From IMG/VR virus record IMGVR_UViG_2548876857_000005, positions 1 to 31,287 of that record: a stretch of DNA of 31,287 bases; one strand, written 5' to 3'. Shown here in pieces: positions 3,001 through 6,000 of the stretch; within the stretch, counting starts at the first letter, position 1; each line of letters starts with the position of its first letter. The stretch is from a virus. Taxonomy: Duplodnaviria > Heunggongvirae > Uroviricota > Caudoviricetes. A program made the position numbers.

Positions 3001-6000
3001 AGCAGACCGCCACCAGCATACTGAAGCAGCGCACAAAAAATATTGCGCTACCGCCTCACACCCACCAGCAACAGAACCCACCACAGGAAAAGACGGTGGT
3101 CAGCATTGCCGTTGATCCGGAGTCTCCGGAATCCTTCATGAAACGACCTAAACGTCGCCGCTGGGTAAATGAGAAATACACACGCTGGGTAAAGACACAG
3201 CCGTGTGCGTGTTGTGGTAAGCCAGCGGACGATCCTCATCATCTGATTGGTCATGGTCAGGGCGGAATGGGAACAAAATCCCACGATATTTTCACGCTAC
3301 CGCTGTGTCGGGAGCATCACAACGAGCTTCATGCGGATCCGCTGGCGTTCGAAGAAAAGCATGGTTCCCAGGTTGATTTAATTTTTCGTTTTCTTGATCA
3401 CGCCTTTGCAACCGGCGTGCTCGGGTAAAAGAGGTTACTGATGCGTATAGAGTTTGTTTTGCTTTACCTGCCGACGGTGAACACCTACTGGCGACGTCGT
3501 GGCAGCACATATTTTGTATCAAAAGCCGGTGAGCGTTATCGCCGGGCTGTGGCGCTTATTGTTCGCCAGCAGCGGCTGAAATTAAGCCTGTCCGGAAGGC
3601 TGGCGATAAAGATTATTGCCGAGCCACCGGATAAGCGCCGCCGTGACCTGGACAATATTCTGAAAGCGCCGCTGGATGCGCTGACGCATGCGGGGTTGCT
3701 AATGGACGATGAGCAGTTTGATGAAATCAATATCGTTCGTGCTCAGCCAGTATCTGGTGGACGTCTGGGGGTGAAGATTTACCCCATAATGCTTGAAGGG
3801 CAGGTCAAAAAATGAAACTGGAAGATTTACCGAAATACTACTCCCCAAAATCCCCCGGCCTGACTGATGCATCGGCCTCAACGTCGAAAGATACGCTGAG
3901 TATCACTGATGTGATGGCCGCGCAGGGCATGACACAGAATTGGGCTGAGATGGGGTTTTCTGCGTTCCTTGGGAAAATGGGCATTAGTATGAATGACAGA
4001 GAGCGGGCAACAGAATTGCTGACAGAATATGCACTCAGTCGGTGTGATCGCGTGGCGGCGTTAAGAAAACTCCCGGCAGAAATAAAACCGGCAGTGATGC
4101 GTATTATGGCTTCGTATGCGTTTGAAGATTATGCCCGTAGCGCGGCGAGCAAAAAACAGTGCCCCTGTTGTCACGGAAAAAAATTTATTGAAAGCGAGGT
4201 TTTTACAAACAAGATCCAGTATCCGGATGGTAAGCCGCCAGTGTGGGCAAAGTGCACAAAAGGCGTGTATCCGTCTTACTGGGAGGAATGGAAAAAAGTC
4301 AGGGAGGTGGTAAAAGTTGCCTGTCCGGAGTGTGGAGGGAAGGGGGAGGTTTCCACCGCCTGTAAAGATTGTCGTGGGCGCGGTGTTGCCATTCATCGTG
4401 AAGAGTCGGTAAAACGTGGTATGCCTGTTATCAGAGACTGCCAGCGTTGTGGTGGTCGTGGCTATGAAAGATTACCTTCAACGGAGGCATTTAATGCCAT
4501 ATGTAATGTAACCGATGCCATATCTCTTGATACATGGAAAAAAACAGTTAAACGTTTTTACGATACGCTGGTGGTGCAGTTTGATATTGAAGAAGCATGG
4601 GCAGAACAACAACTGAAAAAGGTGACCAGATAGCTTTGTTGATTTTTCCCGAATCTGTGGTAAATTTGCCCTAACGATGGGCGTTTTATGCCTGACGTTA
4701 GAAGATTTTTTACACCCGTCGCCAGGCGGGTTTTTTTATGACTGAAATCACGCCAGTACAGTAAACGCGCTGGTGGTTGTGAATACCGGTCTTTCAGCTT
4801 GCTGGCTTTTTCGACAAGAGTTATTGGTGTGTCACGTTAACCGGAAAAAGGAAAGTTTGAGAAACGCGATCTGGCACAGGCGGTGATTAACGCCGCATAC
4901 CTGGTGGCCTGTGCAAATGGTGAATGTGAGGCTTCCTAGAAAGCGAAGATCGAACAGGTACTGCGTAATCAGCCAGCGCTGTCCGCGTTTACGTCAGAAA
5001 TTAATGCGATTAGCGCAACCATTATCGGTCAGCTGGATACGAACTTTAAAATTGGTCGTCGTGCGGCGTTACGTGAGATCGAGGATGTGAAACGCGATAC
5101 GCGTGAAGCGGAAGATGTGCTGGATGTGGCGGTGGCCATTGCGGAGGCAGACGGCGAAATTGAGCCGGAAGAGCGCAAGGTGCTGGAAGAGATTGCCGGT
5201 GTTCTGGGGCTTCGTCTGGAGAATCACCTGTGACGGTAAAACTGCGCCTGGCTGTGGCTGCACTCCTGCTGTTTCTGGTGGTGATGGTGGATTTCACCAG
5301 CAGAATCATGTCGGTGCTGGCGGATGGGGGCTGGTCTGCGGCATTGTGGTATTGCTGTGGCCGGTGATAAAAAGAAACAGCCTGCATAATGCTTGATTTT
5401 TTTGTTTACTGTTTATTAAAAATACTACTGCATGGTGAATCCCCCTGTGCGGAGGGGCAATCAGCAACCAGGTATATGGGATAATCGCGGATTCAGGTGC
5501 TGGTACTGAATTCACCGGGAGGCACCCGGCACCATGCTTTGCCACAAAAGTGTTATTTCTGTTTTTCTCAAACTATCATCGTTATCCCTTTATTTCCGGC
5601 TGCGCATGGCGCGGCCTTTTTTTTACGACCAGCCACTGGCAGATGGTCATCCTGTGATTTGATTCCGGTTCCGGCTTTTTAACTCTGTTCCTGTACACGG
5701 GAGAAATTCGATGTCGATTAAACATTATGATGTTGTCAGGGCGGCGTCGCCGTCAGATCTTGCGGAAAAGCTGACACACAAACTGAAAGAGGGCTGGCAG
5801 CCGTTTGGTAGTCCGGTGGCCATAACCCCTTATACCCTGATGCAGGCGATTGCCGCGGAGGGGGATGTGACCACGCCAGTGGTTGTGCCCGGCACGGGGG
5901 ATGGTGGCTATCCGGGAGTGGTCACCACGGAGCCAGATTATTACTACGTTATTCCACTGGCCGGGCAGTCGAACGGCATGGCTTACGGTGAGGGGCTTCC

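Follow-up and report, generated by a model that had tools for sequence, protein, structure and literature searches.

A lambda-like Sp6-type prophage with a decayed TerB-type gene pair and an STnc100-family sRNA gene between Q and nanS-p

Layout of the interval

The stretch of DNA analysed here (the window) is 31,287 nucleotides long. The genes and signals from the antiterminator gene Q to nanS-p all lie on the + strand and are listed below with the evidence for each.

3812..4633, +, antiterminator gene Q (273 aa, QuuQ-type lambda-Q homologue); Pfam Antiterm PF03589, 168 bits; 'antitermination protein' in the NCBI annotation pipeline PGAP
4639..4666, +, late promoter PR'; aligned with lambda PR', identical in the Stx2a phage Stx2_EH1910
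4673..4678, +, -10-like pause element AACGAT; identity to lambda AACGATGGG, function presumed from lambda biology
4714..4738, +, intrinsic terminator tR' (7-bp stem, 4-nt loop, T7); terminator scan
4739..4854, +, Stx-phage-type late leader; 99.6% to reference L004 4701-4955
4852..4854, no strand, deletion junction with AAA microhomology, joining the leader to tciA nucleotide 51; homology limits in four references
4852..5233, +, tciA pseudogene (TerB family); Pfam TerB (PF05099), 38.5 bits against a cut-off of 24.4; PGAP pseudogene 'internal stop'
5230..5367, +, tciB (DUF3927), 45 aa instead of 55; 1-bp deletion in the G-run 5326-5330; start overlaps the tciA stop (GTGA)
5393..5422, +, candidate sRNA promoter (TTGATT 5393-5398, conserved TTAAAAA box 5416-5422); suggested by conservation
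5404..5570, +, STnc100-family sRNA gene (relatives EcOnc27, sRNA103 and PasD); Rfam RF02076, 101.6 bits against a gathering score of 47, E 1e-22
5598..5624, +, strong intrinsic terminator (8-bp stem, 7 G-C pairs, T8); terminator scan
5711..7648, +, nanS-p (DUF1737, SASA sialate O-acetylesterase and DUF6645); Pfam and PGAP annotation

A prophage of E. coli O103:H2 12009 matches the window at 100% identity, and window positions 3400-8908 are 99.4% identical to prophage Sp6 of strain Sakai (O157:H7), with matching annotation in both. Every element listed in a preliminary description of this DNA is present, at coordinates that are exact or within one base. Support for the elements comes from homology and conservation rather than from motif counts; promoter-like and terminator-like motifs were not above shuffled expectation. 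The conserved right border of the slot is nanS-p.

The conserved flanks: the PR'-tR' unit and the sRNA gene

The Q product is 32% identical to lambda Q (BLASTP, E 9e-41), and the gene lies immediately upstream of PR', as in a lambda-type late unit. A PR'-like promoter had been proposed at 4639..4666 and a tR'-like terminator at 4715..4737; the first aligns there with lambda PR', and the terminator scan places the second at 4714-4738, with its stem at 4714-4731 and a T7 tract at 4732-4738. PR' consists of a -35 element TTGATT (4639-4644), a 16-nt spacer, an extended -10 TG (4658-4659) and a -10 element TAAATT (4661-4666), the last being the same as in lambda PR'. At 8/12 matches it was missed by a generic sigma-70 scan. 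In lambda, the AACGATGGG motif induces a sigma-70-dependent pause, where Q loads. The window matches this motif exactly at 4673-4681, giving the lambda-type order of a promoter followed by a -10-like pause element in the initially transcribed region, as judged by sequence identity alone.

We infer the start site of PR' and its dependence on Q by analogy with lambda and Stx-phage biology. Transcription is predicted to begin at approximately 4673, and PR' and tR' would then delimit a transcript of about 66 nt (4673-4738). PR' would be constitutively active; without Q, RNA polymerase would halt at tR' after making this short RNA, whereas with Q, loaded at the AACGAT pause site, it would run past tR', across the dead cargo and the sRNA gene and past the sRNA terminator, and continue into nanS-p and then into the lysis and morphogenesis genes.

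The predicted RNA folds at -21.3 kcal/mol (z = -3.0) into a 5' hairpin, a U-rich linker and the terminator with its U7 tail. In Stx2_EH1910 the unit is near-identical, with one mismatch in 255 nt, at 4849 and hence outside the RNA, and it occurs in hundreds of EHEC and EPEC genomes. The RNA may be a trans-acting, Hfq-dependent regulator, an analogue of StxS with unrelated sequence, and we regard this as a tentative and rather doubtful proposal; if it is true, two functional sRNA genes frame the cargo slot of QuuQ-type lambdoid prophages and outlive any cargo. For Sp6, the Hfq-bound sRNAs given by Tree et al. (2014) include none at the PR'-tR' or STnc100 position. Identification of the PR'-tR' RNA as the 66-nt HnrS sRNA was considered and rejected; the comparison, which used a mazF sequence, leaves the absence of HnrS from the window as a whole unproven.

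At the right-hand side, a non-coding stretch of about 230 bp ending in a strong terminator at 5598..5624 had been noted, together with a TTGATT at 5392-5397 from which a short non-coding transcript was suspected. Stretch and terminator are both there, TTGATT lies one base further on (5393-5398), and the stretch turns out to be an STnc100 gene, that is, a member of a curated sRNA family detected experimentally in relatives. The covariance-model match to RF02076 spans model positions 1-206, with a structured core at 5430-5537 closed by the stem GCAUGGUG/CACCAUGC, and the locus is 94% identical to the PasD2 locus of E2348/69. The closing stem and internal hairpins are kept among nine variants (RNAalifold; 26 pairs, mostly invariant, with one compensatory A-U to G-C pair), though covariation is weak. 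The structural reading is based on covariance model and alignment because the single-sequence fold is uninformative: the minimum-free-energy structure of 5429-5632 is no better than shuffled (z = -0.89).

In every variant the TTAAAAA box precedes the core by approximately 10 nt, with differing sequences further upstream. Homology to phages JLK-2012 and Stx2_EH1910 resumes at 5411/5412. The right-hand homology boundary lies at the -10-like box of the sRNA. We suggest that cargo exchange takes place between two conserved flanks, the PR'-tR' unit on the left and, on the right, the STnc100 gene and the terminator that belongs to it. In the lysogen, a promoter of its own probably drives the sRNA. 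The terminator, with a stem at 5598-5616 followed by T8, is likely to be the 3' end of this variant; the canonical 3' terminator hairpin CAGCCCCTCTCCGGAGGGGCTTTT of references L004 and L012 is absent after the closing stem.

Experimental data exist for several relatives. EcOnc27 is Hfq-bound and gives Northern bands of approximately 235 and 247 nt (PMC4104026). In uninduced EDL933, 11 STnc100 copies are transcribed, one of them confirmed by Northern blot, and the copies of the 167-nt type reach RPKM values of 239-1259 (PMC5331693). sRNA103 adds family-level experimental support (PMC5030294), and the relationship of PasD to STnc100 has been described (bioRxiv 10.64898/2026.05.13.724894). It is for these relatives that a discrete Hfq-associated transcript has been shown (PMC4104026, PMC5331693). 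The STnc100-family gene is absent from the RefSeq annotation, which carries a spurious antisense pseudo-CDS across the sRNA terminator.

Alternatively, 5368-5624 might not be an sRNA gene in its own right: it could serve the cargo operon as 3' UTR and terminator, or nanS-p as a structured leader, and be transcribed solely when polymerase reads through from PR'. The generic sigma-70 scan found no consensus promoter for the sRNA, which fits this reading, as do the unremarkable fold, the missing canonical terminator and the lack of an EcOnc sRNA call at the equivalent Sp6 position. We nevertheless consider it unlikely, since the match to the covariance model scores double the gathering threshold, the -10-like box and core stay the same where the DNA ahead of them is swapped between loci, and the family is abundant in uninduced lysogens and binds Hfq, with the EDL933 copies of the 167-nt type transcribed at the levels given above. 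An intact STnc100-family sRNA gene therefore remains our preferred reading.

The cargo: origin of the junction and decay of tciA and tciB

The window shares its Q allele, PR', tR' and leader with the Stx2a phage Stx2_EH1910 (LC567834; 99.6% over window 4600-4854); beyond the leader, the slot of the phage contains hyp66, a DNA methylase gene, three tRNAs, stx2AB, STnc100, antisense iraM and nanS-p. The interval therefore occupies the stx slot, as the preliminary description had supposed. Its contents differ: ARAGORN found no tRNA genes in the window, and blastn and tblastx found no similarity to stx2AB, methylase, hyp66 or iraM anywhere in it, so that the closer alignment which might have uncovered stx or tRNA genes did not do so. 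The arrangement of Stx-converting phages, with stxAB and usually tRNA genes between Q and nanS-p, is thus not present. In some other genomes, tRNA-Ile/Arg lie directly upstream of tciAB. Kinship with Stx phages is modular, with Q, PR', tR' and the leader on one side and the sRNA gene and nanS-p on the other; the description of this prophage as a non-Stx relative of Stx phages holds for these flanking modules, while the virion genes are lambda/phage-21-like.

The leader is 90-92% identical to that of many Stx2a/2d phages and of phage PPyecE_EH1910. In Stx2a/2d phages it continues into the hyp66 ORF, whereas here it is cut 6 nt before the hyp66 ATG. In four independent references, leader homology stops at 4854 and tciA homology begins at 4852. 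Compared with PPyecE_EH1910, the junction is a clean loss of 2,578 bp (L011 2424-5001), and the same leader::tciA junction is found in 478 of 5,426 complete E. coli genomes. We propose that a deletion mediated by microhomology brought nucleotide 51 of tciA directly behind the Stx-phage-type leader; the tciA start codon was lost with it, as was upstream cargo of about 2.6 kb, judging from PPyecE_EH1910. No ancestor predating the deletion, with a QuuQ-type Q, then hyp66 and, further on, tciA, was found, and a single-deletion origin is suggested by analogy to a phage that has a different Q.

The prophage could also be a former Stx phage whose toxin operon has since been replaced or deleted. The near-identity of the Q-PR'-tR'-leader segment to that of a Stx2a phage would suit such a history, and the STnc100/nanS-p module on the right is common to Stx1a and Stx2a phages. 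Against it, no remnant of hyp66, the methylase gene, the tRNAs or stx is left in the window, a deletion inside a tciAB-type array like the one in PPyecE_EH1910 accounts for the junction in full, the virion genes are closest to those of non-Stx phages, and these data do not show in which direction modules were exchanged. There is no evidence that stx was once present here, and we judge this history very unlikely; deletion within a tciAB-type array is the explanation that we prefer.

The defined junction accounts for the missing start codon of tciA. The first 50 nt of the gene (codons 1-16 and part of codon 17) are gone, and a GAG codon has become TAG at 4937-4939. The TerB frame of 4841-5233 runs from just after a TAA at 4838-4840 to the TGA at 5231-5233 and lacks a start codon; its first bases, 4841-4851, are leader read in frame, and true TerB homology starts at 4852. 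An intact tciA homologue matches phrog_632 at 232 bits. The window thus has no complete, uninterrupted tciA ORF with a start codon, and the locus is a pseudogene: the TerB remnant without a start and with an in-frame TAG that had been reported at 4841..5233 was confirmed by the profile search, and the possibility of an intact frame with an unusual start falls with the missing 50 nt and the TAG.

The TAG is shared with full-length copies that adjoin a different Q gene and that also have a +1 frameshift near the start. Among TAG alleles dN/dS ranges from 0.05 to 0.96, compared with 0.01-0.02 for intact ones, a median some 20-40 times higher, in values that derive from few substitutions and are possibly blurred by recombination; the comparison points to relaxed constraint on the TAG alleles. 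We rejected recoding of the conserved TAG because dN/dS is relaxed and there are additional lesions. The earlier suggestion of a decayed cargo gene is borne out by the lost start, the TAG and these ratios.

A possible 45-aa membrane ORF had been proposed at 5230..5367. The ORF exists, and is better described as a frameshifted tciB: its DUF3927 match covers only profile positions 2-34 of 53, short of a full-length TciB (phrog_1470; approximately 54 aa with two hydrophobic segments). The 1-bp deletion alters the C-terminal 11 residues and shortens the product. Every other tciB copy examined has a run of six G and a product of 54-55 aa, and the loss of a G belongs to an O103/O45/O121 sub-lineage. 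Given the lesions in tciA and the frameshift in tciB, both cargo genes are therefore dead passengers. A literature search found no functional study of tciA or tciB (the only matches were Trypanosoma TcIa/TcIb papers), and a comparison of TciA and TciB with PADLOC gave no credible defence-system match. A 48-aa TciA fragment is annotated as a protein in Sakai (ECs_5711) and constitutes PHROG family phrog_3920.

That the TerB frame still functions, through read-through of the TAG or a 48-aa C-terminal fragment made from an internal start (GTG 5087), with the allele kept by selection, is scarcely credible: the TAG allele is widespread (the 478 genomes with the junction, plus full-length copies beside another Q type), beyond the TAG the encoded protein hardly differs from that of intact alleles, dN/dS is low for some TAG-TAG pairs (e.g. 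0.05) and the fragment is annotated as above, but these points are outweighed by the absent start region, the +1 frameshift in full-length TAG copies, the raised median dN/dS, the frameshift in the translationally coupled partner tciB, the lack of a good ribosome-binding site ahead of GTG 5087, the absence of a suppressor tRNA from the window and the PGAP pseudogene label.

We are therefore confident in reading the Q-to-nanS-p interval as the late-operon cargo ('moron') slot of a lambda-like Sp6-type prophage, with a dead tciA-tciB pair between conserved flanks. The slot holds this TerB-type pair in place of Shiga toxin, together with an intact STnc100-family sRNA gene, a real and ordinary arrangement. 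There is little new in the interval because everything here has been described or annotated before: the architecture by Tree et al. (2014), the pseudogene by PGAP and the junction in the 478 genomes; novelty is accordingly low. Its importance is modest and it leaves the understanding of Stx-phage biology unchanged. It does provide a worked example of slot turnover, in which the sequence shows precisely where the deletion joined its ends and in what order the lesions arose: the flanking regulatory RNA elements and nanS-p are conserved, presumably by selection, while the protein cargo that they enclose can be exchanged and can decay.

Comparison with known systems

Sp6 (ECs_1524 to ECs_1527) is the same as the window in Q, PR', tR', the leader::tciA junction, the TAG, the STnc100 copy and nanS-p. 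It differs in having an intact tciB (six G, 55 aa) and a T to C change in the sRNA closing stem at the equivalent of 5436, and its similarity to the window stops at 8908; the corresponding Sakai region is NC_002695.2 1554170-1555247. Phages JLK-2012, Evi and PPyecE_EH1910 and strain OkiPb01709 have a tciA-tciB pair upstream of STnc100 at 90-91% nucleotide identity, followed by nanS-p in JLK-2012 and PPyecE_EH1910 and by none there in Evi and OkiPb01709. Unlike the window, all four have a 143-aa tciA that begins with ATG and is free of the TAG, a tciB of 54-55 aa, other Q genes, and extra upstream cargo (tRNAs, a methylase and toxin-antitoxin-like genes). Stx2_EH1910 shares the STnc100 gene and nanS-p at the right border, but differs in the toxin, tRNA, methylase, hyp66 and iraM genes of its slot and in its STnc100, a longer variant of the canonical kind that scores 153.8 bits and carries a terminator of its own.

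The PR'-tR' unit would resemble those of the lambda 6S RNA and StxS in a constitutive late promoter, immediate termination and predicted Q-dependent read-through, and in a short RNA made up of hairpin, U-rich segment and terminator (PMC7547250). The RNA predicted here differs from both in its length of about 66 nt and its unrelated sequence; StxS, moreover, accompanies a Q of 144 aa and is processed from a 258-nt precursor.

The sRNA gene shares with STnc100, EcOnc27, sRNA103 and PasD the closing stem, the three hairpins and the position between cargo and nanS-p (PMC4104026, PMC12711010, bioRxiv 10.64898/2026.05.13.724894). The window has no convergent anti-sRNA of the AgvB/AsxR/EcOnc03 type: a pattern search, allowing three mismatches, for the 3' module of about 42 nt that AgvB and AsxR have in common found nothing convergent with STnc100, and there was no Rfam match at E <= 1. 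The copy in the window also differs from the family in ending at a downstream terminator in place of the canonical hairpin, and in its central, presumably target-pairing region, which is approximately 20 nt shorter and of different sequence.

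The left flank and the stx slot

The features of the interval between Q and nanS-p that carry the argument are the following.

3812-4633: Q (QuuQ type), 273 aa, a homologue of lambda Q (Pfam Antiterm, 168 bits; 32% identity to lambda Q, E 9e-41)
4639-4666: late promoter PR', aligned with lambda PR' (TTGATT 4639-4644, 16-nt spacer, TG 4658-4659, TAAATT 4661-4666)
4714-4731: stem of the terminator tR', followed by T7 (terminator scan)
4852-5233: remnant of tciA, a TerB-family gene
5404-5570: STnc100-family sRNA gene (Rfam STnc100, 101.6 bits against a gathering score of 47)
5598-5624: strong terminator

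Q carries an extra zinc-finger insertion, and the -35 element of PR' starts five bases 3' of its stop codon. The window and lambda promoters have the same -10 hexamer, followed by a 6-nt discriminator and then by the same AACGATGGG; a generic promoter scan did not pick up PR' at 4639-4666. In lambda, the shared -10-like element after the discriminator causes a sigma-70-dependent pause where Q engages RNA polymerase. The predicted 66-nt RNA at 4673-4738 folds as a hairpin at its 5' end, joined by a U-rich linker to the terminator (-21.3 kcal/mol, z = -3.0), and by analogy with lambda 6S RNA and StxS (PMC7547250) it would be constitutive in the lysogen.

The Stx2a phage Stx2_EH1910 has the same Q, PR', tR' and leader, with 99.6% identity over window 4600-4854. 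After the leader it carries hyp66 (a 66-aa ORF), a DNA methylase, tRNA-Met/Arg/Arg, stx2A and stx2B, with an STnc100 gene 75 nt 3' of stx2B, then antisense iraM and nanS-p, while other E. coli prophages have the order Q, tRNA-Ile/Arg(/Arg), tciA, tciB, STnc100, nanS-p. The window contains no tRNA genes, and nucleotide and translated comparison found no similarity between the Stx2_EH1910 cargo and any part of it. Because the flanks match and both tRNA genes and cargo similarity are absent, the interval is the toxin position without a toxin remnant; the comparison with an Stx phage thus bears out the preliminary description, which had placed it at the stx locus without stx.

Deletion and decay of the cargo pair

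Homology to the Stx-type leader stops at 4854, and homology to tciA starts at 4852, which is nucleotide 51 of the intact gene (143 aa) in all four independent references: phages JLK-2012 and Evi, and two overlapping loci of PPyecE_EH1910. Compared with PPyecE_EH1910, the window shows a clean 2,578-bp deletion; besides the first 50 nt of tciA, it takes out hyp66, the methylase, a plasmid-stabilisation-like gene and a regulator. The deletion ends overlap by AAA, inside A-rich runs, and the leader::tciA junction is found in 478 of 5,426 complete E. coli genomes. The TerB frame had been drawn at 4841-5233; since tciA homology starts only at 4852, positions 4841-4851 are leader sequence, and the remnant stands from 4852.

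What is left of the frame scores 38.5 bits against Pfam TerB and contains a GAG>TAG change at 4937-4939; PGAP flags it as a pseudogene. The earlier reading of a TerB-type frame with an in-frame TAG and no start, the latter lost with the first 50 nt, therefore holds. The same TAG occurs in full-length tciA copies beside a 229-aa Q (L009 1454-1882; L013 and L014 1754-2182, all comparison loci), and the nonsense allele has consequently spread among prophages with different Q, independently of the 5' deletion. These copies also have an additional A (A6>A7) about 20 nt past the original ATG, given which PGAP models a TTG start. Purifying selection is strong on intact tciA alleles (dN/dS 0.01-0.02 at dS 0.38-0.68), whereas the TAG alleles, a young group (dS <= 0.07), have dN/dS of 0.05-0.96, which indicates relaxed constraint, on few substitutions. 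The 48-aa C-terminal fragment of the dead gene (window 5087-5233) is Sakai protein ECs_5711, 'TciA/TerB-like protein', and corresponds to its own PHROG family, phrog_3920 (48-position profile); this is a pseudogene fragment carried on as a protein family.

The start of tciB (DUF3927, phrog_1470) overlaps the tciA stop (GTGA). Every other copy examined encodes 54-55 aa, but in the window the loss of one G at 5326-5330 (G6>G5) shortens the product to 45 aa and alters its C-terminus. The 45-aa ORF described previously is thus present, its nature now refined to a frameshifted tciB.

The STnc100-family gene

The DNA previously described as non-coding, with a possible short transcript ending at 5598-5624, proves to be an STnc100-family gene, and JLK-2012 and Stx2_EH1910 have a family member at the same place. 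The nine distinct variants among the fetched loci have four helices in common around a variable central segment: an invariant 8-bp closing stem (GCAUGGUG 5430-5437 with CACCAUGC 5530-5537), a CCCCU/AGGGG hairpin, a GGAUUCAG/CUGAAUUC hairpin with one compensatory change, and a CCGGG/CCCGG hairpin. Homology to both JLK-2012 and Stx2_EH1910 picks up again at 5411/5412, where a TTAAAAA box is conserved some 10 nt ahead of the sRNA core; the DNA 5' of the box varies by locus. This is the pattern expected if the box were the -10 element of an independent sRNA promoter, and the box is also where cargo exchange ends on the right. Stx2_EH1910 and E2348/69 have the canonical terminator hairpin; the variants of the window and JLK-2012 do not and must use the strong terminator at 5598-5624, for a predicted RNA of 200-230 nt. 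A convergent anti-sRNA partner was looked for here and is absent.

Of the 5,426 genomes, 2,836 contain some part of the sRNA region, and a single genome may have it at as many as 11 places. EcOnc27 of Sp5 is Hfq-bound, with Northern bands of ~235 and 247 nt (PMC4104026), and is the same sRNA as sRNA103 (PMC12711010, PMC5030294); in uninduced EDL933, transcription is seen for eleven STnc100 copies, one of them Northern-confirmed (PMC5331693). EPEC PasD is also related to STnc100 (bioRxiv 10.64898/2026.05.13.724894), and the E2348/69 PasD2 locus has 94% identity to window 5445-5546.

At PasD2 in an E. coli O127:H6 E2348/69 derivative (L012 3980-4110), an ISEc13 end (...GTGTATAAGAGACAG) abuts the STnc100 core at CTGTGCGGAGGGG. 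With neither the native promoter nor the closing stem's 5' strand left at this junction, the reference PasD2 looks like an IS-truncated STnc100-family gene. The Sp6 copy has T>C at the equivalent of 5436, by which a U-A pair in the closing stem would become C-A. Tree et al. (2014) called no Hfq-bound sRNA at the two Sp6 positions, and the change might be linked to the missing call at that Sakai site. RefSeq has an antisense pseudo-CDS ('hypothetical protein, incomplete'; 5591-5734, minus strand) lying across the sRNA terminator and the start of nanS-p; it is present in many genomes, where the STnc100-family gene is left unannotated, and is probably an annotation artefact.

Prophage setting and comparison with known systems

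The 1.5 kb around the feature matches the E. coli O103:H2 12009 chromosome with 100% identity, and prophages of O45:H2, O121, O55:H7 and some O157:H7 strains with 99.6% or more. Prophage Sp6 of O157:H7 Sakai, annotated as 'lambda-like phage', matches window 3400-8908 with 99.4% identity. This similarity stops at 8908, within a YdfR-like ORF (8581-9111) of 176 aa that has only 114 aa in Sp6 and that PGAP marks in O103:H2 as an incomplete pseudogene; the stop is another mosaic joint. Next come endolysin (9433-9966) and Rz (10456-10923), apparently intact, and the virion genes further 3' are nearest to non-Stx lambdoid phages (89% identity to phage 21 and lambda). A sok antisense RNA of a hok/sok-type toxin-antitoxin module (1249-1398; Rfam RF01794, 103.9 bits) adjoins hokD, upstream of DUF968, rusA and Q.

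Beyond nanS-p, window 7702-7736 exactly matches the 35-nt oligo that the supplement of Tree et al. (2014) gives for EcOnc33, an Hfq-bound Sp6 sRNA with a Northern signal of ~71 nt. The minus strand of 7652-7740 has a long GCCGCCGG...CCGGCGGC hairpin and a T-run abutting the nanS-p stop, probably an sRNA convergent with nanS-p and possibly related to PasA, reported between esterase and holin genes.

At the level of sequence, the parts, junction and lesions of the interval are established; the original observation is confirmed and its interpretation supported. By analogy with lambda and Stx phages, PR' would be constitutive in the lysogen with transcription halted at tR', and Q-dependent transcription would read on past tR', through the dead cargo and past the sRNA terminator to reach nanS-p and the lysis genes. 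The STnc100-family RNA, like its relatives, would be expressed autonomously.

RefSeq already annotates the pseudogene, tciB and nanS-p. For Sp3, Sp4, Sp5, Sp9, Sp10, Sp11, Sp15 and Sp17, Tree et al. (2014) described this layout: cargo coding sequences lie 3' of PR', and sRNA genes separate them from 'a conserved hypothetical ORF'. Sp6 is not in their list. The interval is an ordinary arrangement, already known, to which this analysis adds the precise position of the deletion junction, the order in which decay proceeded and the identity of the 'non-coding' DNA as an STnc100-family gene.
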